In this document: positions 3 through 19,951 of the stretch, one piece after another
Layout: each line of letters starts with the position of its first letter
How positions within the stretch are numbered: the first letter of the stretch is position 1
Source of the DNA: Myxococcales bacterium
GTDB taxonomy: Bacteria > Myxococcota_A > UBA9042
Reading direction: 5' to 3'
Assembly: GCA_037441385.1 (NCBI GenBank)
Contig: JBBISH010000065.1
Coordinates: 1 to 35,151, forward strand
Length of the DNA: 35,151 bases
Made by a program: the position numbers and the translations under genes
The notes under the pieces: generated by a model
The model's database searches: none
What the model was told of the DNA's origin: nothing
The model's input: the letters and a program-made list of their open reading frames with translations, nothing else

Positions 3-3000
3 GAAATTGCCCAGCTGCAGCTTGCCCTGATCCGCTTCGACCAGCACGTACAGCTTGCCGCGCGCCTGCACGTCCTGCACCTGGGTCGAGGCGTCGCCAT
101 AGACCGGGTAGAAGCGCGTGGGATCGATGAGGTTGGTGGCAAAGTCGGTGGTCGCCGGATCCTTGGCCGTGTCGACGTGCGCGGTGAAGCGCAGGTTGTC
201 CAAGCCCAGGTACTTGCCGGCGATGCGGCCCTTCAGGTAGACCGCGCCGCGGCCCATGATGTTGACGCTGTCGCCCGCCTGCCACACGCCGTCGCGCCAG
301 CCCTTGTCGCCGCCGCCGCGCTCCGTCTCGACCAGGTGCGCGCCCACATGGCTGACCGACGTGTCGGCGATGGCCAAGATGAACAGCGCCCGATCGCGGA
401 CCGTGAAGTTGCGCTGCAAGGTGGCCTTGTTGCCCGCCGGGTCCTTGCTCACCACCGTCAGCGTACTGCTGCCGACTGGCATGGGCGTCAACGCGTAGAA
501 GCGGCCATCGCGGCCTACCGGCACCGGGTTGCCCTGGATGGTGATGGTGTTGCCAGGCCGGGTGATGCCGCGCACCGGCAGCTCCAGCGCAGCCAGCTCC
601 TTGCCCGCGGGCGGCAGCCACACCTGCAACTCGGCCGCCGCCGGCAGCGCCGTCTCGGTCGACCCTTCGGCCAGACTGATCGGTTGCAGCGGCGCTCCCG
701 CCACGCTGGGTTGCCGCGGTTTGCCGCTTTCGGCCGCGCGCACGTCTTGCGCCAGGCTGTCCAGCAGTTCGCCGCCAAAGCTGGCCACGTCGCGGCTGGC
801 CTCTTGCGGCACGCCGGCCGTCGCCACGCCGCCCGGGGGCTTGGCGGGCTGACCAAAGCGGTGCAGCCAGATCGCGGCCGGGCCCTTGCCGCGCTCGTAG
901 ACCACGCGGTTGTTTTGCCCGGACTTGATGTTGAGCTCGCTGGGCAGCGCTCCGGCGCCCGCACGCACATCGTCGACCCACACACCTTGCGGCACGGCAA
1001 AGTCCTCGGTCGACGGATCGGACGAGCCGCTGTTGGCGCTGCGCCAACGCAATTCCACGCGGTGCGGCCCCATGGCCTCGCGGCTGGGCTTGGCATCGGG
1101 CACCAAGTTGCCCACGCCGACGACAAGAAGCCGCTCGCGGGCCACCCCGGCGCCCAGCAGCGCCTTTTCGACCACCTTGGCGGCGTTGGCGGTGCGCTGC
1201 ATGGCATCGGCGGCGCCGTCGTCGTGGACGCTGACCACCGCGATCTTGTCTTTCTCGGCCGAGAGCGAAACCGCCAGCTTGCCCAACCACTCCCAAGTCG
1301 ACTCGGTGGGCTGACCAGCGGCGTCGAACAAGGTGGCGCGCACGAACTTATCGGGTTCGCCCGCCGGCAGCAGTGCCGGCCCGCGATCCGCCAGCAGAAT
1401 GGTCTTTGGCACGGTTCGGTAGCCGGCCAGGTGGTCGCCTTCGGCCCACAACACTTCCAGCGCCATGCCATAGCGGCCGGGCTGCAAGTTTTGGGCGTTG
1501 GGCGCCCACAAGAAGCTAGACGGCACCGGCACTTGCAGCGTCTTGCGCGCCAGCACCTCGCCGTCCTTGTTCAAGAGCACCACGGCCGCGTCCTTGGCCT
1601 TGTCGGGCAGCTGGCGGGCACTGAGCATCAACTGACCCAGCACCTTGCCACCCGCCAGCGCCAACGGCTGCGACGGCACCAGCAACTCGGCGTTGCCCGA
1701 ACGTGGCACCAATTCCTGGCCAGCGACGCGCAGTCCCTTGGCTGTGGGCGCCACTAGGACGGGTCGGATCTCGGCGGCGGCCGCAGGGGCCGGAGCTGCA
1801 ACGGGGGGCGGATCCGAGGCCGGAACCGGAGCCCGAACCGGAACCTGTGCTGGTGCGGGAGCCGGAGCCGCAACCGGAGCCGGTGCTGGTGCGGGAGCCG
1901 CAACCGGAGCCGGTGCTGGTGCGGGAGCCGGAGCCGGAGCCGCCACCGGAGCCGGCGCAACGGGCGCACTGGCCTTGGGTGGTGGAGCGGCGCCCCAAAC
2001 CGGCTTGATGACGGCGTCTTTGCTGGCCTGGGCCGGCAAGGTCATGAATTCATCGCGGCCGCTGCCATCGGCGCCGCGGACGGCGACCAGCAGGCGTCCG
2101 TCGTCGGGGCGCAGGACGCGCGCCAGACCGCGAACTCCGGCCAGCTCCAGCGGATGGCCGTTGATCAGCCAGCCCGCCCGGCGTTGTGTGCTGTGCCAGG
2201 TGCCCACGGTGGGGGCGCCGCTAGCCTTGACTTCGAACGGCAACGGCGCCGACCACGCCCGGCTGCCAAAGCTGGTCTCGGCGCGCAAAATCACGGCATA
2301 GCGGCGTCCCGGCTCCAATTTGGCCAGCACCTGGCCGCCGCTGCTCAACTTGAACGTGACTTGCCGCGTGACATCACCGGTGCTGACCGACTCGTACATC
2401 AACTTGCCGCGGCGGCCGGTGTCGCCCACTGCACGGATCTCCAGAGTGTGCCGCGAGAATCCGCCGGACGAGTTGGTCCACACGCTCAGCTCGCCGTTCT
2501 GCGGGAGCACGACGGCGGTGGGATCGCTGGGCAGGTCGCGCGGCCGCTCGCCGGTCGTGACCATGGCCGCCTGCACGCGCCGCGCCTGCAGTTTCTTGCC
2601 GTCCACCGCCACGTCCAGCGTCGCCGAGTCCGCCTCGACGAGCACTACGCCCGGACCGGGCGTCACCGGGGTGACGTCGGCCCCCGGCACCACTTCCAAC
2701 TGCCCAGGCCCCACGGGCTCCAGGGCGCAGCGCACCGCAAAAGTCAGGCCTTGGGTCAGGCCCGGCGTCAGCAGCAGCGCCTGCTTGCCGTCTTCGACAA
2801 AGGTCGAGCCGGGCGGCAGCGTGTCGGGATCGACCTTGAACAGGTGCGTCCCGGCCGGCAGATTGACGAAGTGCGCGCGACCAAAGGCGTCCGCCGCGGC
2901 GTACTCGCCCGTGTCCACATAGATCCGCGCGCCGGGCAGGCCGTCCTCGCCCTCTTGCTGCACGCCGTCGCCGTTGCCGTCGCAGAAGATCTTGGTCAGG

Positions 3001-6000
3001 ACGCCGGCGCGATCAAACAGCGGATCCGCCTGCACCTGCAGCGCTGCCGTGGCGCGGTCCGACAAGGCGCCGCCGCCCGTGTCATACAACTGCGCAATCG
3101 TGCTCAGGTTCGCCCCAACCGCCGCCGAGGCCCCCACCGCCGCCAAGACCTTGAAGGTCAGCTCGCCCCCAGCCGGCAGTTCCAAACCCAGCGGCTGCCC
3201 GCCCGGCCCGGCCGCCCGCTTGATCGTCAGCAAAGTCCCCGAGATCGGCGCCAACGGCACGTCCACGGTCGGGCCGCTCGGCCGCACCAGCGTCATGCGC
3301 GCCGTGCCCGGCACCAGCGCCATCCCCGGCGGCAGCACTTGGCGCAGCTCGGCGCCGCCCTGGCCGGTCAACAGGTCCGGCGCCAGCGCCGTGGTCGAGC
3401 CGTTGACCACCTTGACGGTGATCCCCACCATCTCGCCCACTTGTGCAGACGTCTTGCTCAGTTGCAGCGACACGTGCACCAGCGACGCGATCTTGTCGAC
3501 CGGGATGTGGTTGTGGCGCGGCAGCGGCGGCGCGTTGTCGCCTTGGCGAGTAAACCGCTGCAAGTACTTGGGCAGGCTGGGGGTCAGCTTGGGCAGCGCC
3601 GCCTCGACCACAAAGCCGCCACTGTCCAGCATCACCAGGTTTGCTTCCGGAGCTTTGGCGGTCGACGGGAACGAGCGACCGATCGACGCCGCCGCCACGT
3701 CGATGCGATACGCGCGCCCAGGCGCCGCGGCAAAGATGTAAGCACCCGTCGCGTCGGTCTTTTGGCCCTGCTGGCCGGCCGGCAGCTCGTCTTGGGGCAC
3801 CGTCTGCCCTGGCGCAAGCGGATCGGCCGCGTCGTAGCTCAAGAACACCTTGGCACCCGCCACCAGCTCGCCGGTGCGCGGATCGTACAGACGTCCGGTC
3901 GGTTTGATGGGCAGATCCAGCGTACCGCCCGCGGCCCCCGGAGCGGTCCACTCCGTCTCATAGAAGACCACGCCGTTGGCGTTCAGCACGCGGAGCTTGC
4001 GTTTGCCTTCGGGCACTTGCATCAGCTTGTAGGCGCCCTTTTCGTCCGCCAGGGCGCTGGCCACGGCGCCGTCGCCGCTCAGCGGCAGCAACTGCACTTG
4101 GAAGCCCGGCAGCGGCAGATCCAGATTGCTTTGGAACACGCCATCTTGCGCGCCCACGTCCTCAAAGACGCTGCCGCGCACCATGCCTTCGCCCACGATT
4201 GCGCCCACGGTGACGCATGCGGCCTTGCTCGACCAGCCTGTGCTGCCCGGCAGGGTCGCATCGGCGACATTGCACAACACGGTCCCTTCGCTGACCTTTT
4301 CGCCCACCCGCGCCCGCACGGCCACGGTCGCGCTCTCGCCACCCAGGATGTTCAGCCCATTCACCGCCAGGACGACCGGCTTGGTCGCCTGTGTGCCGGC
4401 CCAACTGACTTGCGCCCCCTCGGGAACCAGCAGGTCGCCCGCGCCGGTGCCGGTGTCGGCGGTCGGCTGCAGACCCACGGGCAGCGGGTCGCGCAGCAGC
4501 AAGTTCTCCAGCGGCTTGGCGCCCAAATTCTTGATCTGAATCGTGTAGCGCAGCACGTCGCCGATCTGCACTTGGCCGCCGTTTTCGTCTTGAACGCTCT
4601 TGCTGACTTGTGCGACCTGGGCCTGGGCGCCCACCGCCACCACCGTGGGCTGGTTGCCGTTGCCGTCGTTGCCGTCGCTGTCGGTCAGCTCGGGGCTCAC
4701 GCCCTTGGCCTGCACAGTCGCTTGGTTTTGCGCCAGCGGACCGGCCAGAATGCGCGCCCGCAGCACCAGCACCCGGCTCTGGCCCGGTGCGATGTCGCCC
4801 AGCTTGGCGTGGACGGTGCGCGTGCCCACCTCGAACCAGCCAGCGTCCGCGTCTTGGGCCTCGGTCAGGGCCACGCCGTCCAACTGCAGGCTGGCACCGA
4901 CAAATTGCAGGTTCTGCGGCAATGGATCGTCGAGCGTGGCCGCGCTGGCCGTCGTGCCGCCGGTGTTTTGCACCGTGATCACATAGCGCAGCTCTTCGCC
5001 CACATCGGCGACGCCATTGCCGTTGCTGTCCTGGATTTCGGCCAGCTTGCTGGCCGTCTTGAGCGAGGCGCCCTTGCCCACGGTCAGCGCCGCCGGCCCC
5101 ACCGGCGTGGGCGGCACGCCCGTAGCCGTGGCGGTAGCCAAGTTGGTGATCAGCGTGCCATCGGCGACGTCGGGCCGCACGCGGGTCTGGAAGGTCAGGA
5201 TCGCCGCGTTCTCGATGCCGGCTTGCAGGGCACCTGCAGCCATTCCAGGGCCTTGGACGGTCTGGCCGGCCACGAGCGGCAGCGTGCCCCCGGCGCCGTC
5301 GGCCAGGGGCTGGCCATTGAGGCGCGTCGAACCCGGCACGTAGTCGGTACCCGCCGGCACACCATCAAACACCTTGACACCGCTCAGGTTGGTGTTGGCC
5401 GTCGCCACCAACGCCAGCTTCCAGGTCACGGTGTCGCCGGGCAGCAGCGCACCACCGTTGTCGTCGGTTGCCAGCTTTTGCGAAGCTTCCAGGGCACTTT
5501 GCACGCGCACCACCACGAGCGTGGGGTCAGCGTTGCCACTCGGGCCAGGATCGTCCGACAGCAGCGGCTTGGCGAGCGATTTGGCGGTCGCCTCGGCCTG
5601 GTTCGGGATGGTCAGGTTGTCGGCCACCGCGGCCTTGATCCGCACATCAAAGTGCAGAGCCACCGGCTTGCCGGGCAGCACGACCGCCAGGCCGGGCGTC
5701 GAGCTCGGATTCCAGGTCACTGTGCCGCCGGCAAACGTGCCACCACTGTCGGCCGAGACAAATTCCAGATTGTTGTCCAGCGGATCGCTGACCACCACGC
5801 CTTGCGCCGCGGCCGTGCCGTCCACCGACACGAGCAGTTCGTAGCGCAACACATCCAGCGGATTGGCCTTGCCGCCGTTCAGGTCCTTGACCGTCTTCTG
5901 CACCTTCAGCAGCGGGTGCGACGCAATCGGCACGCTCTGCGGCACGGCGCCGTAGGCCAGACCAGTCTCGCCTTCGCGGGCCAGGGCCGTGAACTCGGCC

Positions 6001-9000
6001 TTCTTGCCGTCTTCGGCCGTCGCTTTGACTTTGAGCCCCGCCAGCAGCACCACCGGCTTGCCCACCGCAATGTTCGCCAGCGCCGCAGAATCACTTGCTT
6101 TCCAGGTCAAGGTCTGGGTCTTGGCGTCGTAGCTCGCGCCCTGCAGCGCCGTCACGTCGAACACGCTGGCGTCCAAAGTGGCTTGCACCTGCACGCCGGA
6201 AGCGGGCTGATTCTGAGCCGTTACCTGCACTTGCAGCGTCACGGTGTCGCCGGGCTGGAGCGGCAGCTTGGCCGGCGCTTCGGGCAACAGCCCCAGTTGC
6301 ACATCCAGGGTGGGGTAGCTCACCGGCACCTGCAGGGTGTTCGAGCTCACCTCGGCCACGCCGTCGGCCTTGACGATCGCTTGATTGACGATCGTCGAGC
6401 CGCTGGCAACTCCGCCTGCGATCTTGGCTCTTACCGCAACGGCCACACTTTGGCCGGCCTGCAGGCTGGGCACGGCCCACACGACCTGCTGGCCGCTCAC
6501 GGCGCCTTGGCTCTCGGCCTGGATGCCGGTCAAACTGACCGCCAAAGTATCGGCAATCACAAGGTTGTTGGCGGTCGCGTTGCCCAGGTTGGCCGCAGTC
6601 AGCACAAACCGCACGGTGTCGCCCGGGAACAGGTGCTTGCCCGTCAAGTCTTCGTAGGTCTTGGTCAGTTTCAGAATCGGCCGCAGCGTAACGGTGGCCG
6701 TCGGCCCGCTGATCGGCGTCGGCGTTGCCAAGGCCGTGGCGGCCACGCTGCCAGAAAACGCAAGGACTTCTCCATCCTTGGCGCCGGCCGCAACCACCAC
6801 TTTGTAGATCAGCTTGGTCTGGCCACCCGCGGCCAGCGCCGGCAGCGACCACACCAGGTTCTGCCCCTGCTGCACGCCGCCGGGCGTCAGCATCTGGACC
6901 TGCCCGACCTTGTTCGGCAACGCCAGCGTCACTACCAAGCCGTCGGCCAGCGCCTTGCCCGAGTTCTTCAGCGTGGTCTCTAGCCGCAGCGTATGGCCGG
7001 GCGCCGTCTGGCCCACTTTGGCGACCCAGCCGCTTTCGTCTTCGATGGCCATCGTCGAGGTGTCGAACTTGGGCTTGGCCTGCACCACCAGCTTGGCTTG
7101 CGGCGGGTTGGCGACGCCGGGCAGCGTACCCAAAACCGTTACAATCTGGCCATCTTGCAGGCCAGCCGCCAAGGTCGCCTGCAGCGTCACGGCCACGTCG
7201 CCGGTCGGCGACAGGCCCACGGTCGGCACCGTCCAGTTCACCGCGTCGGTACCCAGCTTGCCGCCATCGTACGACTTGACGTCGCTGAACGTGCCCGCCT
7301 GCAGCAGCGCCTGCACCGGCACCAGTTGGCCCAGGCCGTCGCCGGTGTTGCGCACCGTCAGCCGCAGCACGACCGCGTCGCCGGGCTCGAAGGCGCCGCC
7401 GTTGATGTCCTGCACGGCCCAGCTCGACGTGGCGTAGTCGGGCGCGGCTTTGACCGTAATCTTGGTCACTTCGCGCACTGGGGTGCTCAGGTCCGCGTCC
7501 GTCAGCATCGGCACTTTGAAGCCGGCCGCGGCCAGCTGCCCTTGCATCGCCACCACCGAGCCGTCGGCCAACGGCTTCTTGAGCACTGACTTCAGGGTCA
7601 GGACAAAGCTGCCGCCGGGCGCCAGGGTACCCAGCTTCCAGATCGCCATGCCGGGCGTGACTTGGCCGTTGTTGTCGGCCACCAGCTGCTCCAGCTTGGG
7701 ATCCAGGGGCAGCGTGACGGTCACATCCTTGCCGCTGCCATCGCCGTCGTTCTGCAGCTTGAGCGTCCAGGTCAGGCTGTCGCCAGGGCGAGCGTCGCCG
7801 CCGTTGTCGTCCACCACCGTCAGGGTCGCCTTGCTAAAGTCGACGTTCGACTGCACTTGCACTTGCGTGGCGTCTTCTTTGGCGGCCGACAGTGGGTCGT
7901 CCGACTTTTGCGGCGCCGGCAGGCCGCTGTAGACCAACTGCGCTTGATTGGCGATGACCAGCGCGTTTTCAGCGCCCGCGAGCACGGTTGCGTCAAAGCG
8001 GAACACCAACTCGTCGGTCGCCGCCACGCCCAGCGACGCCACCACCGGCCAGGTGATGGTGTTCAAGGTCGCGTCGAACTTGCCGCCGTCCAAGGGCACG
8101 ATGTCCGTCAGGCCTTGCGGCAGCGGGTCGCTGACCACGACCGATTCGGCGTTCGCGTTGCCCGCGTTCTTGACGCGCACCACCCAGCGCAGCACCTGCT
8201 TGGGTTTGACGGTGCCGCCGTTGAGTTGGGCATTGGTCTTTTGGTCGAACACGTCTTTGGTGAAAGTGAGCTTGACCTGACTGTCCACCGCAAAGCAGGT
8301 GGCCGTGCCGCCCGGTTTCGGCGTGGTGCCGGGTGGGTTGGTCTGCACCGGGGTCGTGTTCTCGGTCGCGGTAATCGTAGCCTGATTGCAGACTTGGCCG
8401 CCCTTGGTCAGCGGCTTCTTCAGCTTGGCCTGCACGGTCAGGACTTTTTGCGCGCCGGCCGCCAGGCTGCTCAGCGTCCACTTGGCGACGCCGCTGGCGT
8501 CGACCACGCCGCCGTCCGACAGCTGGATCTGCTCGACTTCTTTGGGCAAAGCGTCCGTGACTACCACACCGGTGCCGGCCTGGTTGCCCGAGTTGACGAT
8601 CGTCAAGGTCCAGGTCACCGGGTCGCCGGCCTGCACGGTCGCGGCCGACACCGCCTTGGTCGACGCGCCAAAGTCGGGCAGGTTCACCACCTGGAAGCTG
8701 ACGGTGTTGGTCTTGCCGTTCTTGGGAGCCTCGATAAAGGCCAACTCGGCAAAATTGCTAACATTGGTGCCGCTTGCAGTGGCCTTGTCAACCACAGCGG
8801 TCAGCGCCACTTCGGTGGGCTTGCCGGGCTCCAGGCTGGCGATGCTCCACTTGGCTACGCGGCTGGCAGCGTCAAAACTACCCCCAGTCACCACCACTTG
8901 CGTGAGCTGAGTCGCCAGGGTGTCGCTGACGGTGATGCCGGTAGCCGGCGCGTTGCCCGTGTTGACCAGCGAAATCTTGTACTGGATCTGGTCGCCGCCC

Positions 9001-12000
9001 TGCACTTGGCCGCCGTTCAGATCCACAAAGCTCTTGACCGACGTCACCAGGTTCGGCGCGGAATTCACTTTGAAGCTGGTGGGATCGGTCTTGCCGGGCA
9101 GCGCCGGGTCGTCGGACAGCGCCGGCGCACCCAAGCCGTCGCCGGTCAAGCTCGCCTGGGCCGATACCACCTGATTCTGGGCGATGACCGCCGCCAGCTT
9201 GCCACTGAACGTCAGCGTGACTAAGGCGCCGCCCTTCTGCAAGGTGCCAACATCCCAGGTAATCTTCTGACCAGAGACCGTCCCGCCCGCGGTGGCCTGC
9301 AGACCGGTCAACACGGGATCCACGTCGATGCTGACCTTGCCCGATTGCACCGCGCCGCTGCCAGTGTTCTGCAATTTCAACGCGTAAGTGACCGTGTCGC
9401 CTGGGCTGAAGGTCGCGCCGCCGCTCGATGTGGCCACCAGGCTCCAAGTGCTGATGTTCGGCTGCGCCTGCACCTTGATCGTGGCCGAGACGGGCACCGG
9501 CTTGGGCAGCTCGCCGCCCGACGCTGTGGCGTTGTTGCCGATGGTCGTGCCGGTGGGTACCAGCGGGCCGACCTTGGCCTGGAATTGCAGCACCGTTTGC
9601 CCGCCCGCGGCGATCGACGGCACCTTCCACGTGATCTGCTTGGCGGCCGCGTCAAAGGCCCCCGCGCCGGTAATGGCGCTCACGTCCTGCAAATTCGGGT
9701 CGATCGGATCGACCACACCAAAATCGCCGCTGGGCAGCTTGCCACTGTTCTTGAACGTTAGCGTGTACTGCAGCGTGTCGCCGGGTTCGAGATCGCCGCC
9801 ATTGACGTCGACCACGGTCTTTTGCGACGTGCTCAGGTCGGGGCCGCCCACCACCGTCTGCATGGGCGTCTGCACCACCACCGCGGGGCTGTCGCTGGGG
9901 CTCAGGGTCGCCACGTTGGCAAACGTCGAGCCAGCCTGCGTGTCGGCCTTGACGAGCGCGATGAAGCTGAGGGTCTGGGTGGCGCCGGGCTTGATGACCA
10001 CGTCCTTGGCCTGCACCGTGCTGCCGACCAGGGCGAGTTCGGGCGATTGACTCGAAACAAAGCTAAGTTGCGACGGGATCGGGTCGGTGATCGTCACCAG
10101 GCCCACCACCGGACCCGAGTTCACCAAAGTGATGTCGAAGCGGACCTGGTCGCCGGCTTCCAGCGGCGTGTTCGGGCTAAGGTCGGTGACGGTCTTGCTG
10201 GAATTAACAAAGCTGGACGCGGCGTTGAGCGTCAGTTTGGTGGGCTCGCCGGTGCCGCTGGTCGCGGGGTCGTCGGTGAGGAAGGTCTTGCCCGCCACCC
10301 CCACGCTGATTTGGGTCGAGACGACGTGGCCATTGATCGGCGAAACCCCGGCAGCCGCAAGGGCTTGTGCGGACAACACTGTGGCTGTCCAGGTGCAGAC
10401 GGCCGTCTTGCCTGGGTCAAGCCCAAGGTTGGTGCCGGCGATTTGGCCGGTCTTGTTGGCGCCGCCGCCTGGGCTCACGACCCAGGTGTTGCCCGGCAGG
10501 CCCTGCTGGTACGAACAGTTGACCGCGCCGAGCTGCACTTCTTTGGGCGCATCCCAGGTGAAGTTGACCAAGTCGAGCGCCGACGAGGTGTTTTGCACGG
10601 TGAAGGTGTAGGTGACCGTGTCGCCCGGCTTGGCGTTGGTGGGCGCGACCGACAGCTTGGGCTCTGCGATCGCCGCCGCGACGATGGTCACGGTGACGCT
10701 ATTGGTCGCGTAACTGTCGTTGTAAACAGTGGTCGATCCCTTGGTGCCCACATAGGTGAAGGCCAAGTTGCCCGTGCTGGTCGAGGTCGTGGTCCCTGGG
10801 TTGGCGGCCACTTGCAGCTTGAAGGCGATCTTGCGCACCGAGTTGCTGCCGGTCCAGGTGATGGTGCCCAGCTTGAGGCCGGCGGCGAGCGGGCTGGTGC
10901 CAGGGGCCGGATCGGCCACAGAAACGCCGTCGACTACCAGCGAATTGGCGACCCACTGCATGCCCGCGGGCGGAAATTGGTCCAGCTTGAGGACATTGTT
11001 GTCGGCATCGAGCTGCCCGTTGTTCTGCAGATCGATCTGATAGGTGAGAACTTCGCCCGCCGAGGCGGCAACGGCTTCCTTGGAGTTGACGGTGTAGTGG
11101 CTGACGATGTTCTTGTAATTGGGCGCCTTGCGGTTGATCTGCAGGATCGTGTAGGCGTAGAAGAACAGTTCGCCGTCGCCGCCCAAGTTCGAACCGTTTG
11201 GGTACACATAGGTGTTGTCGGCCAGGCTGCCGTTGCCCGAACTGACCAGGAAATACGCCTGCGTATCGCCCGCTTTGACGCGATCCGATACGTCAAACGT
11301 GTCCAGGTCGATGCCGGCCTGGGGCGTGGAGTTCATGATGTTGTGCGGCTCGTTGTTGCCCGCGCCGCCGATGAGGTCCTGCATGTTCTTGGGATCGTTG
11401 CCAAACTGCACAAAGTCCCAGCAGTTGGTACAGCCGGCCGAGTACCCGGTATCGGTGTCCTGCTCAGGATTGCCCAGGTGCTGGTCGCCTTCCAACGCGT
11501 AGTACGACAGCTTGGCCTCTGGCGGGTCCGCGACCAAGAAGCCGCTGATCGGGAAGCTGATTTGACCAAGCGTGGTCTGTTGCTCGTCCAGGAGCACAAA
11601 GCCGTCGTACAGCAAGACGTCGCGCTTCATGAATTCGCTGGTCGACTCGTACACCACCACCAGCGACCAACTGGCATGGCGGGCCTGGCAGTATTCGTCG
11701 GCGTCGGGACCGGCGGTCTGGCAGCAGTAGGGGGGGTAGAAGGGTGGCGCCGGCGGCGGAGGATTCCACAGCGCCGGGCATTTTTCCGCGTCGGTACCCT
11801 GCCTTAGGGCGCCCGCTTTGGCCGCGACATCACCGACGGTGTAGGTGCCGTTGTAGTTGCCGGCGCTTTTCGGGTGGGCGGCCACCAGCTTGGTCACGTC
11901 AGCGCGACACAAAAAGTGAGTACCCGAGCCGCCTTGGCCACCCGGCACGCCCGGATCCGTCAGGGCGCGGCACAGGTCGGCGGTGACGGTGTGGACGCTG

Positions 12001-12356
12001 CCGTCCGCCAAAGTGAAGGTGGCGGTGTCGTCGGGACCGTTCAGGGCCGAACCGCCCCAGTACAGCAGCGCATCCTTGATGACGGCATCGCCGGGCAGCT
12101 TGTTCTGGGTGTTGTCCGAACTTTGCGACAGCAGTTTGTCGTTGATCTGCGCGTAGGTGAAGTTGGTCATGAGCGAGGCGCCGAATTGCTGCGCCCCGCC
12201 ATACACTTGGCGAGTCAAGAACGGAGTCTGCGAGTAGTTGCCAACCTTGAGCGCGAGCGCGGGCCGGGCGGTGATCAGCAAGGTGACCAGGCCGGAAAAA
12301 AGCACCAGCGCGCGCCAGATGGCGGTGTTCCTCATGCAGGGCAATGGCTTTGGCAC
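3..12356 (-). CDS. Giant (>=4118 aa, 3'-truncated by window edge) exported DUF11-repeat adhesin-like protein with SdrD-B-like domains, degenerate OmpA-like domain and probable C-terminal OM beta-barrel
   Basis: Manual translation of most of the region reads in one minus frame, and the ORF track lists no stop-bounded ORF in that frame. GTG at 12356 lies 7 nt after AGGAG (alternative ATG 12335). Signal peptide [31 protein letters not shown]. Head has [32 protein letters not shown] and LEGD motifs. Repeats such as [28 protein letters not shown] span ~4200-11125. [29 protein letters not shown] at ~2920-3000. OmpA-like at ~1050-1340. [34 protein letters not shown] at 1-260. Confidence 0.92.
1820..1960 (-). 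repeat. Imperfect 30/36-bp tandem repeat encoding an Ala/Pro linker ([12 protein letters not shown])n in the giant protein
   Basis: About three copies of GGTGCTGGTGCGGGAGCC(GGAGCC)GCAACCGGAGCC on the + strand, with variable numbers of GGAGCC hexamers. Confidence 0.9.
4200..11125 (-). repeat. 17 tandem ~125-150 aa DUF11/conserved-repeat Ig-like domains (an 18th at ~3020-3480)
   Basis: Recurring K-x-x-x-D-x-NGG-x-x-x-PGD-x-(L/V)-x-(Y/W/F)-x-(I/L)-x-x-x-N-x-G ... (S/T)DPLP ... NQA pattern about every 370-450 nt. Divergent at the DNA level. Confidence 0.85.
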
Positions 12357-12516: not shown

Positions 12517-14307
12517 CTAATACTGCGGATTCCAGAGGGCCACGGAACTCTGTCCAATCAGCCCGTCGCTGGTCGTGCCCACGCCGCCCAGAAGCAGCAC
12601 GTGGCCCGTGTTCAGCGTGATCGCCTGACCCAGCGAGCGCCCACCGCCGGGCATTTCATTATCAACCATCGGCACTTGAATGGTAGTCGGCGGATCCTGG
12701 GTGGGGTCAACCCGCACGTAGATGGCCTCGGCCGTAGACAAGTGTATGGTATCACTGGCGCTTCCGCCGGCAACAAGAATCTGCCCTTGGGTCGTCGGGT
12801 GCGGCACGGCCGCCACCATCGGCGCGCCGCGGCCGGTCGACAGCGCGTAGCCATCGCCGTTGATGTAGTTGCCCTTGCCCACGTCGAACACGTCGAAGCG
12901 AGCCAAGGCCTTGGTGTGGTCCTTGTCGGCAAAACCACCCACGAAGTAGACGTAGCGGTAGGTGGGGCTGCCCGAGCCGCGCGGGACCGACACGTACGCC
13001 GCACCGGGCAGCGTGCGCGCTACCGGCATGCCCTGAGTGAGCGGCTCCCACAAGAAGGCTTCGCACTTGCCGTCGAACAGATCCGAGCGGCAGCCCTGGC
13101 CCTTGTTCGAGATCACGCCGCCGCCCGCCGAGGTGAATTGCACGACTTCAAAGGTGTCGTGGACCTTGTCGTCGTTCTCGCCGCCGATCAGCATCACGTA
13201 GCCGCCCCCTGCGCCTGGGATCACCGCCGCGGCGTGGTTCCAGCGGGCAGTGTTCAGCCGGCCCTGTGCCAAGTTGCCGCTGACGGGGTGCCAGAGCTCC
13301 CACGTATTGCCGGCGCAGTCCAGGTCGTTGCCTTGGTCATCCTTGCATGGGGTGTCGCCCTTGCCGCCCAGAATCAAGAAGAAGTCGTCGCTGGCGAACA
13401 TCTGTACGGCCGTGGCGCCGGCGCGAGCGAATTTGAGGTCGGGGACGGGACCGGCCGAAGTCTGAACCTTGCCGTTCTTGTCGATGTATTCGATCGTGTT
13501 GGTGATTTTGGGGCCCGCGTCGCCTTTGATGTAACCGCCCGCGATGACGATGGCCGACTTGCCGGCCGCCGAAGCGTGGAAGGCGCGCGCGGTCTTCAGC
13601 GCGTACTCTGGGCCGGTTTGGCTGAGCGGGCTCAGCACGCGGGTATTGGGGTCGTACAGCGTGACGGCGTCTGAGAATTCGCCGTACGAGGTTGGGTCAA
13701 AGGCCTTCTTGGCGCCTTGGTTGGGAACCGCGCCGCCCACGATGATGACCCGCCCTTCGTTGCCCGGCAGCGTAACCGCGCTGGAGCCGGCGCGGCCGGC
13801 GCCCATGTCGGCGGCCCCGGCGGAGCTGATGGCCGGAGCGAATCGGTTCATCCGCGTCACGTAGGGCGTCAGCGTGGACGCAGAGCCGTTGACCAGCGCG
13901 TCGTACGGGATGCTGCGGCCCCGCCCAAGCGGCAATTCGGGCTGGCCAGAGGCCCCCTTGGACCAAACCTCGACCCGAACTTGCTGGCCGGTGCCATAGG
14001 TGATGCCGCCGCAGCCGCCGCCGGACGTGCAGTTGAGGTCCAAGCTCATGCCGGCCGTATACGGACGGATGAGCTGGAACGAGTTGTCGGCCACGCCCGG
14101 AAGCTCGGCGGTGATGGCCACGAACTTGTCGCCGGCCAGGCCAAACGGGTCGTCCTCGGTCGAGGTGGGGTGGGCAATCTGCAAGGTGACCCTGGTCGCC
14201 GGCGCCTGGGTGCCCGACGAGCAAGCGGCCGCCGCCAGGGCCAACAGCATGGCCGCGGTCGCAGCGGCGGGCCAAGTGCGGCGCAAGCGCGAGGTGGGAG
14301 CAAACAT
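12517..14307 (-). CDS. Kelch/galactose-oxidase-like beta-propeller lipoprotein (596 aa)
   Basis: ATG 14307 preceded by GGAGGA. Lipobox MLLALAAAA|CSSG. Repeated R-x-x-H/S...(V/L)(I/L)xGG blades (ARAFHAS..VIAGG, ARWNHAA..LIGG, GRSLGQA..LLLGG). The first 315 aa of the 911-aa track ORF are spurious. Confidence 0.85.
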   Translation of the reverse strand: MFAPTSRLRRTWPAAATAAMLLALAAAACSSGTQAPATRVTLQIAHPTSTEDDPFGLAGDKFVAITAELPGVADNSFQLIRPYTAGMSLDLNCTSGGGCGGITYGTGQQVRVEVWSKGASGQPELPLGRGRSIPYDALVNGSASTLTPYVTRMNRFAPAISSAGAADMGAGRAGSSAVTLPGNEGRVIIVGGAVPNQGAKKAFDPTSYGEFSDAVTLYDPNTRVLSPLSQTGPEYALKTARAFHASAAGKSAIVIAGGYIKGDAGPKITNTIEYIDKNGKVQTSAGPVPDLKFARAGATAVQMFASDDFFLILGGKGDTPCKDDQGNDLDCAGNTWELWHPVSGNLAQGRLNTARWNHAAAVIPGAGGGYVMLIGGENDDKVHDTFEVVQFTSAGGGVISNKGQGCRSDLFDGKCEAFLWEPLTQGMPVARTLPGAAYVSVPRGSGSPTYRYVYFVGGFADKDHTKALARFDVFDVGKGNYINGDGYALSTGRGAPMVAAVPHPTTQGQILVAGGSASDTIHLSTAEAIYVRVDPTQDPPTTIQVPMVDNEMPGGGRSLGQAITLNTGHVLLLGGVGTTSDGLIGQSSVALWNPQY

Positions 14308-14369
14308 CAGCGAGTCCTCCGCGCTGGGGGCCGCCATGGCAGCCAACACCCAGCAGGAACAAGAAAAAC

Positions 14370-15986
14370 TTAGAACTGCACGTGGGCCGAGTAACCCGTG
14401 GCCGCAGCGCCCGACTGCGTGCCGGCGTAGATGCCCGCACCGGCGCCACCCACCACCACCACACCGATGGCCGTCCAGAACCACCAGGTCTTGTAGACCG
14501 GCGTGCTGTCCTTGTCCTTGTCGGGGTCCAAGAGCTTGGCGTACGGGTCCTCGGGCACCGGGTCCTTGACCTTGACCCTGGGTTCGACCTTGGGCTCCAC
14601 TTTGGGCTCGACCCTGGGCTCGACCTTGGGCTCGACCTTGGGTTCGACCTTGGGATTGTCGTCGGGCGGCGGGGCCACGATGTCGGGCGCATCGGGCTCG
14701 GGCTCGGGCGCTCCGGCGTAGCAGGCCGGCGTCACGGCGACGTCGCTGGCGCAGCTCTGCAGGGCGGCACGCACCTTGCTCTCGGCATCCAGCGTCTGCA
14801 TCTGCAGGTTGCTCAGGTTGGCCGCATACTCGATCTTCTCGATCGAACAGGTCTTTTTGGTCTTGGCGTTGTACAGGAACAGGTACAGCTCCAGCGAACT
14901 GGGCCGCTTGCTGACCAGACCGAACAGCAGGTGGCTGGCACCGACTTGGCGGGCAAACATGCTTCCGGAATTCTTGAAGATCTTCTCGCCAAAATTGCCC
15001 TTGTTGGCCATGTCCTTGATGTCGTCGGCACTGACGCCCACGGCGATCTCGTCCTGGGGAGCCACCTCGATCTGCAGCACTGCGCGAACCGACAACGGCT
15101 TGCCCTTGAGCGCGATCGCCTGACCCCAGGGAGCCGCATTGCTTTTGCGTACTTGCAGGTAGTGGGTGCCGGTGAGCAAGTCCTTGGCCGTTGCGGGTGC
15201 CGTGCCGATCTTGACGCCATCGACGTAGACCTCCGAGTTCTCTTCGCGGCACTCCACGGTCACGTCGGCGCGGGGCTTGGCTTCCAGGGCTTGGCGGGTC
15301 TTCTCTACGAATGCCTTCAGATCCTTGTGCTTGCGGGCATCCACCACCAGGCTGGGTTGAATGACCAGCGCCTTGGTCAGCCAGTCGCCCGCCGTCTTCT
15401 GGTCCCCGGCGTCGTGGGCCAGGCCAGCCAAGGCCACGTAGGCGTCGCTCAGCTTAGAAAAGTCGACCAATTCAGCGAAGTTCTGTTCGTAACGGTCGGC
15501 CGCGGCGGTGATCAGCTTGACGGCGTCCGGAGCGTTTTCGCCACTTTCGGCCAGCATGTCGCGGGCCGCCGCCATCAACTTGTCGGCCTTTTCCAGGGCC
15601 TTGACGGCCGGGCTCGCCGGACGATCGCGCGGGGCGCCGTTGCTGCCGCCGCCGACGGCTTTGCCCGTTTCGGTGGCCTTGGCGGGGATCATCTTGACGT
15701 AGCCGGCGGCGTCCAGCATCTGCCGCAGGTATTCCTCGATGCGTTGCACAGATAGGGCGCCGACTTCGCCGCGCTTGACAAAGTGGACGATCCCAAGGGA
15801 GTTTTTCTCTTCGTCCGCCCAGGCCTTGCTGCCCAACTGCGACCCGGCAGGCAGCGCCGCGGTCAGCCAGCAAAGTGGCAACAGCAGGGCGACAGCGACG
15901 GGACGCAAGATGGTCCTGACGCGGGCAAGGGCAGCCGTGGACGGAGGCAGGGCGGCGCCGGCTCGGGCGGCTTTGATCGCGAACAT
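14370..15986 (-). CDS. PEGA-domain exported protein with TPR-like region, (PKVE)n spacer and C-terminal PVYKTWWFW hydrophobic segment
   Basis: PEGA motif SEVYVDGVKIGTAP..LLTGTHYLQVRK. N-terminal hydrophobic signal-like stretch. C-terminal WWFWTAIGVVVVGGAGAGIY typical of myxobacterial PEGA proteins. Start codon uncertain (15986 or slightly upstream). Confidence 0.8.
   Translation of the reverse strand: MFAIKAARAGAALPPSTAALARVRTILRPVAVALLLPLCWLTAALPAGSQLGSKAWADEEKNSLGIVHFVKRGEVGALSVQRIEEYLRQMLDAAGYVKMIPAKATETGKAVGGGSNGAPRDRPASPAVKALEKADKLMAAARDMLAESGENAPDAVKLITAAADRYEQNFAELVDFSKLSDAYVALAGLAHDAGDQKTAGDWLTKALVIQPSLVVDARKHKDLKAFVEKTRQALEAKPRADVTVECREENSEVYVDGVKIGTAPATAKDLLTGTHYLQVRKSNAAPWGQAIALKGKPLSVRAVLQIEVAPQDEIAVGVSADDIKDMANKGNFGEKIFKNSGSMFARQVGASHLLFGLVSKRPSSLELYLFLYNAKTKKTCSIEKIEYAANLSNLQMQTLDAESKVRAALQSCASDVAVTPACYAGAPEPEPDAPDIVAPPPDDNPKVEPKVEPKVEPRVEPKVEPKVEPRVKVKDPVPEDPYAKLLDPDKDKDSTPVYKTWWFWTAIGVVVVGGAGAGIYAGTQSGAAATGYSAHVQF
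14578..14654 (-). repeat. 12-bp tandem repeat, 6 copies, encoding (P-K/R-V-E)6
   Basis: GG(C/T)TCGACCTTG-type units on the + strand; protein NPKVEPKVEPKVEPRVEPKVEPKVEPRV. Confidence 0.92.
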
Positions 15987-15998
15987 CAGAAAAACCCC

Positions 15999-16019
15999 AT
16001 GCAAGATAACACCTTGCAT
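15999..16019. promoter_or_regulatory. Perfect 7-7-7 inverted repeat, candidate operator upstream of the PEGA gene
   Basis: ATGCAAG-ATAACAC-CTTGCAT, 13 nt upstream of ATG 15986 in an AT-richer intergenic stretch. Confidence 0.4.
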
Positions 16020-16152
16020 CATGTCTAGCGCGCTCAGCACGGCGCAAGGGCTGCGCGCGTTGCCGGCTCGATCCTGTAGTTTGCCTCAATTGCACAGCAG
16101 ATCAAAACCTCTGGCGGTTCTGCAAAGCAATTTCATGACGCGGCGGTCGCGT

Positions 16153-16944
16153 TCAAGGCTGTCCGCGCGCCACCACCACCAAGCCCACCGGCACTTCGAC
16201 GGCCGTGGTCACCACTGCGTTCGTGCCCGTGAGCGGCGCCGCCAGCATGGCCGACGAGCCGCCGTCCAGGTTCAGCGCGTCGCGCAGCCCCGGCCCCCCA
16301 ACCGGCTCGGACAGCGCCAAGGCACGGGCAAATTCGTCAACGCCCATCACACCTTCACTCACCGCAAGAACCACACGACCCAGCGAGTCGTGGCCGATGG
16401 CCACCCGGCGCGCCAAGTCGGTCCGGCGGAAGCGCGGTCGCTCGCCCGCCACGAGCAGCCGCGGCCCGCACTCCACGGCAAATTCCAGGTCGGGCGGCGC
16501 ATGAAACGTGCGCGCATGGTCCACCAGGGGCCGCCCGCCAGCGATCGCAAAGACACCGTGGTCGACACGGCGCAGGGGGGCCAGCTCGCGCCCGCCGCTG
16601 ACCAGCAGCCCCAGCGGCCGGTATTCCGGGTCAAAATAGCCGGCGTTGATGGCCGCCAGCGCGTGGCTGTAGCTGCGAAACTCCTCGGCCGAAGCCAGCT
16701 TTTTGCCCAGCGCCGTGGCCAGCACCACCCGCAGCTCGTGGCGGCGCAAGTCCAGGCGCAGCAAGTGGATGACCACGCTGGCGCGGTCCGTGCCCAGCGG
16801 CACATCGGTGCGGGCGTATTCCAGACCGGACGGCTCGCGCTGCCAGTGCAGCGGCCGCATCGGCGCGGGGTGGCGACAGGCTGCCAGCGCCGCCAGCCCA
16901 AGCGAACTGGCCAGCAGCGACCGGCGGCTGCGAGCGGTCATCAT
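16153..16944 (-). CDS. Phosphodiester glycosidase (NAGPA/DUF2233) family protein, probable Tat lipoprotein
   Basis: AINAGYFD, ARRVAIG and ALNLDGGSS family motifs; N-terminus SRRSLLASSLGLAALAA|C. Confidence 0.85.
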   Translation of the reverse strand: MMTARSRRSLLASSLGLAALAACRHPAPMRPLHWQREPSGLEYARTDVPLGTDRASVVIHLLRLDLRRHELRVVLATALGKKLASAEEFRSYSHALAAINAGYFDPEYRPLGLLVSGGRELAPLRRVDHGVFAIAGGRPLVDHARTFHAPPDLEFAVECGPRLLVAGERPRFRRTDLARRVAIGHDSLGRVVLAVSEGVMGVDEFARALALSEPVGGPGLRDALNLDGGSSAMLAAPLTGTNAVVTTAVEVPVGLVVVARGQP

Positions 16945-17075
16945 ACGGAATCCGTTCGAATCGAATCGCAAAGCCTGGAAGATCCGCGGGCCCGAACCGG
17001 GGTCCCCGCATGATTCTCGCCAGTTGCCGGACGGGTTACGGTAGCAATACAGGCGTGAATCGGGTGGGGTGCATA

Positions 17076-19571
17076 TCAGAGCAAGCTAGCGATGGCGTCG
17101 CGCAACTTCTGCAGCTGCTCTTCGGGCTTGAAGCCGGTGTCGTAGAAGCGCACCACGCCCTGGCGGTCGATGAGGAAGGTCGCGGGCATCGAGTACACGT
17201 TGAACTTGCCCATCAGCTCGTTCTCGGCGTCGGCGATGATGCCCCACGGCGCCTCGAAGCCCTTGGCAAATTCCAGCGAGCGGCCCTCTTCGCGGTCTAC
17301 GCCCACGCTGATGACCTGGAAGCCCTTGGCCTTGTGCTCCTTTTGCAGGTTGACCAGCTCGGGGAACTCCTTCTTGCACGGGCCGCACCACGAGGCAAAG
17401 AAGTTGATCAGCGTGACCTTGCCCTTGAACTGCGCCGAATCGACCTCGGCGCCGTTCGAGTCCTTGGCCTTGAACGGGGGCACAGGCTTGCCGACCAAGT
17501 CGGTGTCGCCACCCTTCAAATCGCTTGCGCTCACCTTGCCTTGCGCCACGTCCTTGTCGGCGCAGCAGCGGAAGCCGGTGGTCTGGTTGCGGTTGCCAAT
17601 GCCAAAGCTGGCCGACCGCTGGTTGCAGGCGGCGCGCTCGCCCGAGTTGTTGTGGCCGCCCATCAGGCCGGCGGTCTCTTTGGTCACGCCCGACCACTCG
17701 CCCATGTTGCCGGCCAGGTCAAACAGCCCCGACGGCGTGCGGCAATTGGCCTTGGTGCCGGTCTTTTGCGCCTTGCCCTTGTACTTGTCTTCTTGATCGA
17801 CGCAGTTGCCAGCTTCGTAGAACGTGCCGTAGGGGTACATGTTGCCCTCCACGTCGTCGTCGGCAAACTGCTGGTTGTTGTTGTTGTCGACCTGCAGAGC
17901 GCCGGCGCAGGCGCTGACCCACTCTTCTTCGCTGCACAGGCGCTTGCCGGCCTTGGCGCAGGCGTCGGTGGCCTCCGTCCACGAAGCGATGGCCGGCTCG
18001 ACGTCGGGCAGGCTCACGGCCTTGCCGTCCTTGGTCACCGCGGCTTCGTAGGGATCGATGTAGAACGCGCCCTTGCTGGTCTTGGCGGCGATCATGTGGC
18101 TGCCGTCGGGCTTGGGCGCCATCGCCACCGGCTGCTGCGCGGCGGCCGAGGTGGGATTCTCGAGCGCCTTCTGGATGTAGTACTCCAGGATCGCCGTCGA
18201 GGCCGAGCCGGTGACCATGCGACCGTTGATGTAGGTACGCGGCGCGCCATAGATGCCGGCGGCGTAGGCGGCGTCGATGTCTTTGTTGAACTTCGCCTGC
18301 ACGCTGGGGTCCTTGAGGCACGCGTCGTACTTGGCCATGTCCAGGCCCAGCTCCTCGGCGGCCTTGCGGTCGGTCTCGGCGTCGAGCTTGGGCTGGTTGG
18401 CGTACAGCTTGTCGTGCATGTCCCAGAACTTGCCCTGGCGGCCGGCACACAACGCCGCAGCATGGGCAAAGCAGGTGTTGGGGTGCTTGTCGTAGCCCGC
18501 CATGTACTTGTTGCAGCTGGGGTTCATGGGGAAGTGCTTCATGATGAAGCGGACTTTGTCCTTGTACTTGGGCTTCAGCGGCTCCATGGTCATGGCCAGG
18601 TAGCGGCAGTACGGGCACTCGAAGTCCGAGTACTTGACCACGGTGACCTTGGCGTCCTTGGCGCCGTAGGCATCGCGGATGTCTTCTTCGTCCAGGCAGG
18701 GTTCGTAAATGGTCCAGCCGTCTTCGGTCTTCTTGCCCATCGGCTTGCCGCACTCGCCGGTGGGGCGGGCGGCGGGCGCTTGGGCGGCCTGGGCAGCTTG
18801 CGGGGCGACGTTGTTGGCGCCGGCCTGGGCGGTCGTCGGCGAGCCGGCGTCGGGCTTGAGGGCTTCGTCGCCCTTCTTGAACGCCTCGTCGATCTTGGCC
18901 TTGTACTCGGCTTCCAGCGACGCGCGGCTGTGGTCGTAACCCAGCCAACCCGCGCCCGCGCCGATGACCAGCACCAGCAGGGCCGTCGTCACCGGCTGGT
19001 CGAACGAGACCAACAGCGCCAGCGCGCGCTGAATGGCGTTCTTGACCGTCTTGGGGCCGGCGGCGATGGCCAGCGCGGTGACGCAGAAGTTCACGATGTA
19101 CAGCGAGATGCAGTACAGGCAGTAGGCCTCGACCACCGCCGAGCTGTACAGGGCCAAGAAGAGGGAGTAGCCGCTGGTCAACAGGCCGATGCCGGCGACG
19201 GCGTCCAGCGCCTTTTCGCCCACTTTGGCCAGGTCGTGCGAAGTGCGACCGCGCAGGGTCAGCACGGTCAGGTACAGCTGCACCAGGTAGGTGGGGATGC
19301 CGTAGAAGCTGATCGGCATGCCGAACAGCTCGCTGGCGCCCGAGACGTTCACCTTGTCACAGTTGATCGCGCCGCCCAGATTGCAGCTGGAGGTGTAGGT
19401 GGGGTCCAGCGTGATGTGCAACTTGTGGCGCAGCAAGTAGATCGACACGCCAATACCCACCGCCGTCAGCAGCAGGATGCCGTACAGCAAGTTGGTGTTG
19501 GCCGCCGGGGCTGCGCCAGCCGGCAAAGGTTGGGGCGACGATTGGGGCGAATTGCCAAGGTCTTTGGCCAT
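17076..19571 (-). CDS. VKOR + DsbA-like thioredoxin + FGE-sulfatase (SUMF1-fold) + TlpA/ResA-like thioredoxin fusion (831 aa)
   Basis: ATG 19571 with AGGAG RBS. VKOR: SSCNLGGAINCDKV..S.LFGMP, YCLYC, ~5 TM segments. DsbA: YSDFECPYC, GKFWDMHDKLY, GIYGAPRTYING. FGE fold: FYIDPYEA, GKRLCSEEEW, YPYG, GLFDLAGNMGEW, GFRCC. TlpA: GKVTLINFFASWCGPCKKEFP, SMPATFLID. Confidence 0.9.
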   Translation of the reverse strand: MAKDLGNSPQSSPQPLPAGAAPAANTNLLYGILLLTAVGIGVSIYLLRHKLHITLDPTYTSSCNLGGAINCDKVNVSGASELFGMPISFYGIPTYLVQLYLTVLTLRGRTSHDLAKVGEKALDAVAGIGLLTSGYSLFLALYSSAVVEAYCLYCISLYIVNFCVTALAIAAGPKTVKNAIQRALALLVSFDQPVTTALLVLVIGAGAGWLGYDHSRASLEAEYKAKIDEAFKKGDEALKPDAGSPTTAQAGANNVAPQAAQAAQAPAARPTGECGKPMGKKTEDGWTIYEPCLDEEDIRDAYGAKDAKVTVVKYSDFECPYCRYLAMTMEPLKPKYKDKVRFIMKHFPMNPSCNKYMAGYDKHPNTCFAHAAALCAGRQGKFWDMHDKLYANQPKLDAETDRKAAEELGLDMAKYDACLKDPSVQAKFNKDIDAAYAAGIYGAPRTYINGRMVTGSASTAILEYYIQKALENPTSAAAQQPVAMAPKPDGSHMIAAKTSKGAFYIDPYEAAVTKDGKAVSLPDVEPAIASWTEATDACAKAGKRLCSEEEWVSACAGALQVDNNNNQQFADDDVEGNMYPYGTFYEAGNCVDQEDKYKGKAQKTGTKANCRTPSGLFDLAGNMGEWSGVTKETAGLMGGHNNSGERAACNQRSASFGIGNRNQTTGFRCCADKDVAQGKVSASDLKGGDTDLVGKPVPPFKAKDSNGAEVDSAQFKGKVTLINFFASWCGPCKKEFPELVNLQKEHKAKGFQVISVGVDREEGRSLEFAKGFEAPWGIIADAENELMGKFNVYSMPATFLIDRQGVVRFYDTGFKPEEQLQKLRDAIASLL

Positions 19572-19628
19572 TGGGAACTCCTGACAGCGCAAAAGGGCAG
19601 AGGCCGCGCCATGGGCACGCGGCGGGCA

Positions 19629-19656
19629 ATTCTAAGGAGAAACCGCGCCCGCGCAA
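19629..19656 (-). promoter_or_regulatory. Candidate sigma70-type promoter for the VKOR fusion gene
   Basis: Minus strand TTGCGC-N16-TAGAAT, about 58 nt upstream of ATG 19571. Confidence 0.45.
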
Positions 19657-19708
19657 GGGGCACCCCGTGCAAGGCCGCTCGATTGTCGATTATTCCCGGC
19701 GGGCGGAC

Positions 19709-19951
19709 CTACAAAAGCATCGAACCGGTGGCTTTTTTGCCCGCTTCGGTCAGCGCAAAGGTGCCGGCGTCGTAGCTCACCAGCTCGTCGGCCACCAGCG
19801 CCTCCATCAGCTCGCTGAACTCACGGTGGCCGCGACCAAACCGCAAAGTACTGAATTCGTGCAAATCCTTGATATGCATCGCCCCGCCTTGGCGGGCCAG
19901 TTGCTTGAGCACGCCCTTTTTGGCGGTGGCTTCGTCGCTCATCGCGCCCAT
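19709..19951 (-). CDS. Small (80 aa) hypothetical protein, winged-helix-like
   Basis: GGAG 6 nt before ATG 19951; sequence pattern ..GVLKQLARQGGAMHIKDLH..FSELMEALVADELVSYDAGTFALTEAGKK. Confidence 0.65.
   Translation of the reverse strand: MGAMSDEATAKKGVLKQLARQGGAMHIKDLHEFSTLRFGRGHREFSELMEALVADELVSYDAGTFALTEAGKKATGSMLL

Follow-up and report, generated by a model that had tools for sequence, protein, structure and literature searches.

The closest described system to the gene studied here is a fibrillar adhesin of the Gram-negative Acinetobacter silvestris (B9T28_05395, 2129 residues), from which a DUF11 domain was solved as PDB 9IFR and renamed CLIPPER (Costa et al. 2025, Protein Sci 34:e70342, PMC12617251). 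The parts of that paper drawn on here describe an isopeptide bond between Lys715 and Asn806 with an adjoining Asp748, and a K715A variant that melts near 45 °C as against 80 °C and is more sensitive to protease. They also report that 11,756 of 25,913 DUF11 domains in the AlphaFold database are predicted to be bonded and that some DUF11 domains have no bond, and the legend of Fig. 5a puts the bond-forming mark on only some repeats of the Acinetobacter adhesin. Here we describe a giant gene encoding 18 DUF11-type repeats in a 35,151-nucleotide stretch of a Myxococcales bacterium assembly (GCA_037441385.1, contig JBBISH010000065.1, positions 1 to 35,151), referred to below as the window. Ten of the repeats carry Lys, Asp and Asn at the positions of the 9IFR bond and eight do not. 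We consider it probable that the product is a Sec-exported, barrel-anchored fibre with ten isopeptide sites recognized by homology, and that its mosaic of repeats with and without a site came about through position-specific and practically irreversible loss.

Repeats were called with a hidden Markov model (HMM) grown from the protein's own repeats, and a glocal alignment was used for the triad columns. The model delimited 18 DUF11-type repeats (R1 to R18, numbered from the N-terminus) in residues 415-3098 (window ~3057-11135, minus strand; Table 1), matching the count and coordinates given in a preliminary description of this DNA. That description listed a shared Lys, Asp and Asn in R3, R4, R6, R7, R8, R12, R14, R15, R16 and R17, and after glocal alignment these residues fell in the same three columns. 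The hydrophobic triples that it gave for R5, R9, R10, R11 and R13 recurred residue for residue, the Leu of R13 by hand count. R2 and R18, which it had also placed among the repeats without a triad, stayed there: R2 was checked against orthologs, and R18 has Q/T at the Asp/Asn columns. R1 had been called ambiguous; it retains Asp alone (Y/D/S) and has no site.

It should be noted that the plain HMM alignment gaps the Lys column in R2, R8, R13 and R16, which was resolved by inspecting 20 orthologs. For R8 the HMM chose K1373 (QKT), which lies in a loop of the AlphaFold model; the Lys kept in all 20 orthologs is K1367 (FTKDV), which is on the first strand of the model. In R2, a Lys (EPKLSV), an Asp (WDAP) and an Asn (PINGHV) lie one or two residues from the triad columns. 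A shifted triad in R2 was ruled out, since the orthologs have no Lys and fill the Asp column with W, F or L.

The three residues come and go together. At the triad columns of this protein, the 18 repeats contain 10 Lys, 11 Asp and 10 Asn; the Lys and Asn sets are identical, with a chance of 1/43758, and the Asp set contains the Lys/Asn set, with a chance of 8/31824. Among 356 domains from 20 orthologs, 191 had both Asp or Glu and Asn, 140 had neither and 25 had one only. Where the Lys column could be aligned in the ortholog domains, Lys accompanied Asp and Asn in 158 and a residue other than Lys accompanied neither in 84. The exceptions were four domains with Lys and neither partner, eight with Asp and Asn in the absence of Lys, and 17 with a single Asp or Asn. 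The coincidence of Lys, Asp and Asn is far above chance. The preliminary description had made its case depend on the covariation surviving a proper alignment, and under the HMM-based alignment it persisted both in the 18 repeats and in the 356 ortholog domains. Its term "all-or-none" has to be relaxed: the covariation is near-complete but not strict, as R5 shows a polar triple in 15 of 20 orthologs.

R5 deserves a separate description. In those 15 orthologs, the Lys column of R5 is occupied by N, D or E, the Asp column mostly by S/T and the Asn column by N. Across the corresponding columns (window 9159-9440), the repeat is fully hydrophobic in P0001-P0003 only, and the polar triple is seen in orthologs from P0004-P0019. 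The polar triple of R5 is conserved and buried, and is neither an isopeptide triad nor hydrophobic.

The identity of the site follows from comparison with characterized families. The protein matched Pfam DUF11 (PF01345) with 409.8 bits against a gathering cut-off of 24.6 (E 1e-124, 12 stretches), with further Pfam matches to the sister families DUF7507, DUF7619 and DUF7927. NCBIfam returned TIGR01451, the DUF11-type repeat model, and TIGR04226, named "isopeptide-forming domain-containing fimbrial protein" (E 3e-39, three stretches). A profile of the ten triad repeats retrieved 9ifr_A from the PDB (E 1.5e-5) and aligned their triad columns with its K, D and N, the aligned Asp being one residue off the published number by our own count. 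The spacing from Lys to Asn is 91 in 9IFR and 90-111 in the ten triad repeats. In total, 10 of the 18 repeats have Lys, Asp and Asn at the 9IFR-type positions; R1, R2, R5, R9, R10, R11, R13 and R18 do not.

The DUF11 and TIGR04226 matches and the 9IFR alignment support the proposal of the preliminary description that a diderm adhesin has a real isopeptide site here, and the triad of the ten stalk repeats can be read as such a site by homology. An isopeptide site in the DUF11 domain of a diderm adhesin is already published (2025), so that this part of our results is confirmation and not discovery. We gave very little credence to the alternative that no isopeptide bonds form and that Lys, Asp and Asn are kept for some other reason, such as a buried salt-bridge network. 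In its favour, the R5 orthologs show that stable maintenance of a buried polar triple is possible in the absence of Lys. However, Lys, Asp and Asn fall on the bonded residues of 9IFR in the alignment, they covary almost perfectly over the 356 ortholog domains, and nine repeats hold Asp and Asn in every ortholog that possesses those repeats.

Cysteines next to some of these sites were also observed. In R7 (window 8385-8390) a Cys directly precedes the triad Asn and a second Cys follows 30 residues downstream; in R17 (window 4269-4274) the Cys likewise precedes the triad Asn and the second Cys is 18 residues downstream. The arrangement of a Cys before Asn with a second Cys 17-30 residues on was found in 20/20 orthologs for R7 and 19/19 for R17. 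If oxidised, these pairs would link the C-terminal strand with the strand that bears the isopeptide site, and so form a putative double clamp. A Cys pair also occurs in R2 of P0001 and of six further orthologs (7/20), but not in R2 of the rest; in this bond-less repeat it could serve as another kind of cross-link.

A search with R8-R12 as query returned 39 proteins, among them 19 clear orthologs with 42-87% identity over that part; 16 of the 19 have 18 repeats and three are truncated. In the six 18-repeat orthologs examined (of the 19), each repeat best matched the repeat of the same number, with R17 of P0006, which matched R14, as the exception. Identity between repeats within the protein is 13-38%. 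From the positional best matches and this low internal identity, the array is old and not homogenised.

Asp and Asn were present in all holders of R3, R6, R7, R8, R12 and R14-R17 among the 20 proteins, one truncated protein being the only exception, and in none for R1, R2, R5, R10, R11, R13 and R18. Two positions varied, R4 (11/20) and R9 (3/20). The full Lys-Asp-Asn triad (KDN) was also counted in an independent sample of 20 species-level family genomes, with 20/20 for R8, 3/20 for R9, 0/20 for R10 and 0/20 for R11. The order of repeats with and without the triad, whose conservation the preliminary description had suggested checking, is thus conserved among orthologs, with the caveat that R4 and R9 switch. 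A literature search, limited in extent, found no paper on the positional conservation of bond-less CLIPPER repeats.

To read the direction of these switches, we built a tree from the N-terminal domain and placed its root with distant homologs, in which almost every repeat is KDN; the tree came from a quick search with support from the Shimodaira-Hasegawa-like approximate likelihood-ratio test (SH-aLRT) only. R9 is KDN in P0024, P0010 and P0017, which lie at the base of the tree, and hydrophobic in a clade of 17 (SH-aLRT 85). The R4 triad was lost twice, on the branch leading to an eight-member clade (support 100) and in P0024. Two changes at R4 and one at R9 therefore suffice, all of them read as losses, and zero regains are required. 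Polarised loss is demonstrable for R4 and R9 only; for R1, R2, R10, R11, R13 and R18 it depends on an ancestral triad in the wider family. The distant homologs P0020-P0032 could not be matched to this protein position by position, and they were used as a general outgroup only.

We then considered the state of the repeats that lack the triad. With the triad columns excluded, the eight bond-less repeats averaged 52.5% identity among orthologs and the ten triad repeats 52.1%. The replacements themselves can be highly conserved: in the family genomes, R10 has W-A-V in 17/20 and Trp in 19/20. An AlphaFold model of R8-R11, built with a 20-genome alignment, had a mean predicted local distance difference test score (pLDDT) of 92.3 and showed four domains with the same all-beta sandwich of ~8-11 strand segments each. 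Comparison of secondary structure placed the replaced residues of R9-R11 at strand positions equivalent to the K, D and N of R8. Foldseek matched the four-domain model to generic multi-domain immunoglobulin-like (Ig-like) proteins (PrgB, AgI/II, integrins), and 9IFR was not among the matches listed. Neither conservation nor the model shows the bond-less repeats to be decaying or special, and their hydrophobic replacements are as one would expect from the back-filling of a buried reactive site.

The preliminary description had read the pattern as a programmed stalk in which the run R9-R11 acts as a shock absorber. In this form, selection would have kept the bond-less repeats (above all R9-R11 and R13, in mid-stalk) without their bonds so that they can stretch, as a shock absorber or force fuse, between inextensible isopeptide-locked segments, a possibility that we regard as unlikely. 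R10, R11 and R13 are bond-less in 20/20 orthologs, down to ~45% identity, and the bond-less repeats are conserved as well as the triad repeats and confidently folded in the model. By arithmetic, ~115 residues per domain could unfold under load without the bond, against ~20-30 outside the bonded loop, and shock absorption has been proposed for CnaA-like pilin domains (Echelman 2016, cited by PMC12617251). However, descent combined with irreversibility predicts the same conservation. The R9-R11 run is not universal, since R9 is KDN in 3/20 orthologs, and these are the basal ones. A run of at least three is also expected by chance, with a simulated P of 0.39 for 6 of 16 positions and 0.67 for 8 of 18, so that clustering of the bond-less repeats was rejected as not significant. 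Further losses are scattered and lineage-specific, R4 in another clade and the fully hydrophobic R5 in P0001-P0003 only, and a related subfamily is bond-less elsewhere (the 9th, 14th and 17th of 18 repeats in P0026). Load-bearing by the protein is itself conjectural. Beyond conservation, which descent explains, the idea of a mechanical program is unsupported.

A bolder version would see a selected mechanical code across a family of uncultured Myxococcota-type bacteria, with rigid, covalently clamped segments flanking an extensible mid-stalk R9-R11/R13 cassette (~40 nm per domain under load), the isopeptide and disulfide of R7 and R17 serving as hard stops, and the polar triple of R5 representing a third, undescribed core state. 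This we hold to be decidedly improbable.

It would be more improbable again, in our view, that the bond-less repeats took on another role, such as ligand binding, protein contact or a protease-sensitive site, with bond loss as a side effect. Some residues specific to single repeats are invariant or nearly so, for instance the R10 residue W1646 and an insertion in R11, GWVAKVGQ, and the protease sensitivity of the K715A variant of 9IFR (PMC12617251) fits a protease-sensitive site. However, Pfam detected only DUF11-type families in the bond-less repeats and no other family or motif, their conservation equals that of the other repeats, and the conserved residues at the triad columns are core-filling hydrophobics and not surface residues.

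Our preferred reading, irreversible loss by descent in a partly cross-linked fibre, can be set out as follows. The protein would be a Sec-exported fibrillar surface protein of an uncultured Myxococcota/Deltaproteobacteria-type bacterium, consisting of a head, an 18-domain DUF11 (CLIPPER) Ig-like stalk, further beta-sandwiches and an outer-membrane beta-barrel. In ten stalk domains, a first-strand Lys, an Asp and a late-strand Asn would give a self-catalysed Lys-Asn bond, by homology to 9IFR. Such bonds would enclose 90-111 residues per domain, and R1-R17 would have 992 of their 2305 residues protected from force in this way. The other eight domains would have the same fold with the buried reactive residues swapped, mostly for hydrophobics. 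After the loss of one partner, the other buried polar residues would be replaced and the core back-filled; the bond could then return only through three coordinated changes, and losses would be inherited and accumulate lineage by lineage. The bond-less state would be conserved because of common descent and the unlikely regain of a three-residue site, whether the loss is useful or not, and the bond-less domains would stay folded as constrained modules of the stalk.

Several points weigh against this reading. The conserved polar triple of R5 misfits a quick slide to hydrophobics. The base of the tree is poorly resolved, with open forks and a long P0024 branch, and the triad of R1, R2, R10, R11, R13 and R18 is kept by no ortholog. 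Selection for a mechanical role would also give equal conservation of the bond-less repeats. Bond formation itself is deduced from homology only, and the barrel model described below is of moderate confidence only (pLDDT 67, template-modelling (TM) scores 0.15-0.3).

The gene is one open reading frame (ORF) whose 3' end is cut where the window begins, at the first base of the contig (C65). The remainder of the gene is on contig C10 (G000), bases 3-2561, and encodes the C-terminal 853 residues; bases 9-2561 are 92% identical to the last 852 residues of P0002, the closest full-length ortholog. In related genomes, both parts lie within single open frames of ~5000 codons. From this continuation and the unsplit frames of the relatives, the full protein would have ~4,970 residues. 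It is probably too long for the size limit of the AlphaFold database used in the CLIPPER survey. With R9-R11 as query, the gene turned up in 22 of 24 other family genomes, and with the C-terminal part as query in 30/30.

The N-terminal head (Table 1) is common to all 30 homologs compared (27-74% identity), and residues 1-411 had no match to a Pfam family at E<=0.01. A language-model search gave clusters named DUF3344 at 0.92-0.94, with a recognition value under the threshold of the tool, which we take as a lead only.

A predicted model of the C-terminal 853 residues, which had no Pfam family match, was all-beta with ~30 long antiparallel strands. All matches listed by Foldseek for this model were outer-membrane barrels (MtrB, SlpA, LptD, TonB-dependent receptors), with MtrB the best (E 6.8e-8) and TM-scores low. 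With moderate confidence, the model suggests that the cell-envelope anchor is a large C-terminal outer-membrane beta-barrel. An OmpA domain, which had been expected from reading the sequence, was dropped, as Pfam detected no OmpA (PF00691) in the whole protein at E<=0.01 and none in residues 3453-3719 at E<=1. By eye, residues ~3452-3719 (window ~1200-2000) resemble what we take to be the C-terminal peptidoglycan-binding motif of OmpA. Pfam scored an OmpA domain between stalk and barrel in the distant homologs P0020 and P0025, and residues ~3452-3719 may be a degenerate OmpA-type domain at the equivalent place.

Among the neighbouring genes, the ORF immediately upstream on this strand (12517-15252, minus strand, 911 amino acids) has Kelch/beta-propeller repeats according to Pfam. 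Four of the five neighbouring ORFs compared with Pfam had no family, including those at 15739-17013 and 17010-19775 (plus strand).

Table 1 Positions of the giant ORF, its domains and its stalk repeats in the window.
Feature	Window position	Strand	Description
Giant ORF	3-12356	minus	4118 codons; one open frame; 3' end cut by contig start
Likely start codon ATG	12333-12335	minus	Met8 of giant ORF
Probable Sec signal peptide	12252-12335	minus	Residues 8-35, ending ALA, then LK; hydrophobic leader, read from translation by eye
N-terminal head domain	11136-12251	minus	Residues 36-407
R1	10737-11135	minus	Degenerate; Y/D/S at triad columns; no site
R2	10287-10700	minus	No site; gap/W/T; W601 at Asp column, T681 at Asn column
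R3	9864-10223	minus	Triad K721/D758/N814; Asp and Asn in 20/20 orthologs
R4	9483-9848	minus	Triad K846/D883/N941; LLE/LLA in eight-member ortholog clade, MQT in P0024
R5	9108-9467	minus	No site; L973/I1010/A1066
R6	8703-9062	minus	Triad K1108/D1145/N1201
R7	8331-8684	minus	Triad K1234/D1268/N1324
R8	7896-8285	minus	Triad K1367/D1410/N1470; KDN in 20/20 family genomes
R9	7494-7850	minus	No site; L1512/L1549/M1604; KDN in 3/20 orthologs
R10	7083-7448	minus	No site; W1646/A1683/V1741; WAV in 17/20 family genomes, KDN in none
R11	6705-7079	minus	No site; M1769/L1811/F1867
R12	6336-6689	minus	Triad K1899/D1936/N1991
R13	5949-6329	minus	No site; L (hand count)/A2059/F2122; first strand divergent
R14	5550-5924	minus	Triad K2154/D2191/N2252; best TIGR04226 match
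R15	5094-5504	minus	Triad K2294/D2331/N2405
R16	4674-5069	minus	Triad K2437/D2477/N2544; Lys placed by inspection, kept in orthologs
R17	4221-4628	minus	Triad K2586/D2623/N2696
Non-DUF11 beta-sandwich region	3510-4220	minus	CarboxypepD_reg-like; between R17 and R18
R18	3057-3509	minus	Aberrant weak repeat, no site; gap/Q3006/T3086; i-E 1.3e-7
Post-stalk region	3-3056	minus	SdrD_B-like domain, Pro/Ala-rich linker, Glucodextran_B-like Ig domain, start of C-terminal beta-rich region

Within the DUF11 family, a stalk in which only some repeats have the triad is nothing out of the ordinary. The useful addition made by this gene is evolutionary: the positions with and without the triad are fixed over family-level divergence, and every change that can be polarised is the loss of all three residues. 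By analogy with K715A, the bond-less domains are expected to be less stable to heat and protease and to be fully extensible under force. We infer that lower stability and extensibility would be a consequence of the loss and not a demonstrated purpose. R9 and R4 with and without the triad across species, together with the polar intermediate of R5, form a natural series for the contribution of the bond, and the same series tests whether repacking of the core compensates for the loss.

Compared with the Acinetobacter adhesin of 9IFR, the protein belongs to the same Pfam family (PF01345), has the same columns of first-strand Lys, Asp and late-strand Asn and a similar Lys-to-Asn spacing. Both are giant diderm surface proteins with a tandem stalk, and in the Acinetobacter adhesin too only some repeats are bonded, according to the figure legend cited above. 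The features of a fibrillar adhesin found here include an 18-repeat stalk and a probable export leader, the latter read from the translation. However, the protein is more than twice as long (~4,970 against 2,129 residues), and its head is different and unannotated. The Acinetobacter adhesin is OmpA-anchored, whereas here the end is a large predicted beta-barrel and OmpA was not detected by Pfam. The cysteine arrangements also differ: the CTTC disulfide motif of 9IFR is absent here, and the Asn of R7 and R17 instead has a Cys beside it and another farther downstream.

Gram-positive pilins and MSCRAMM-type adhesins with CnaA/CnaB domains (Spy0128, RrgB D2, which is TIGR04226, and the C-terminal domains of Antigen I/II) differ more in their setting. 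In contrast to these pilins, the protein described here has no sortase signal and no pilin polymerisation, its host is a diderm, and its anchor would be an outer-membrane barrel. What they would share, as predicted here by homology, is a self-generated Lys-Asn bond in the buried hydrophobic core of an Ig-like domain. The TIGR04226 matches point to the same likeness, and Foldseek places the R8-R11 model beside the Ig-like domains of PrgB and AgI/II C123. The catalytic residue would be Asp, as the table of Costa et al. (PMC12617251) gives it for CnaA-like E-set families.

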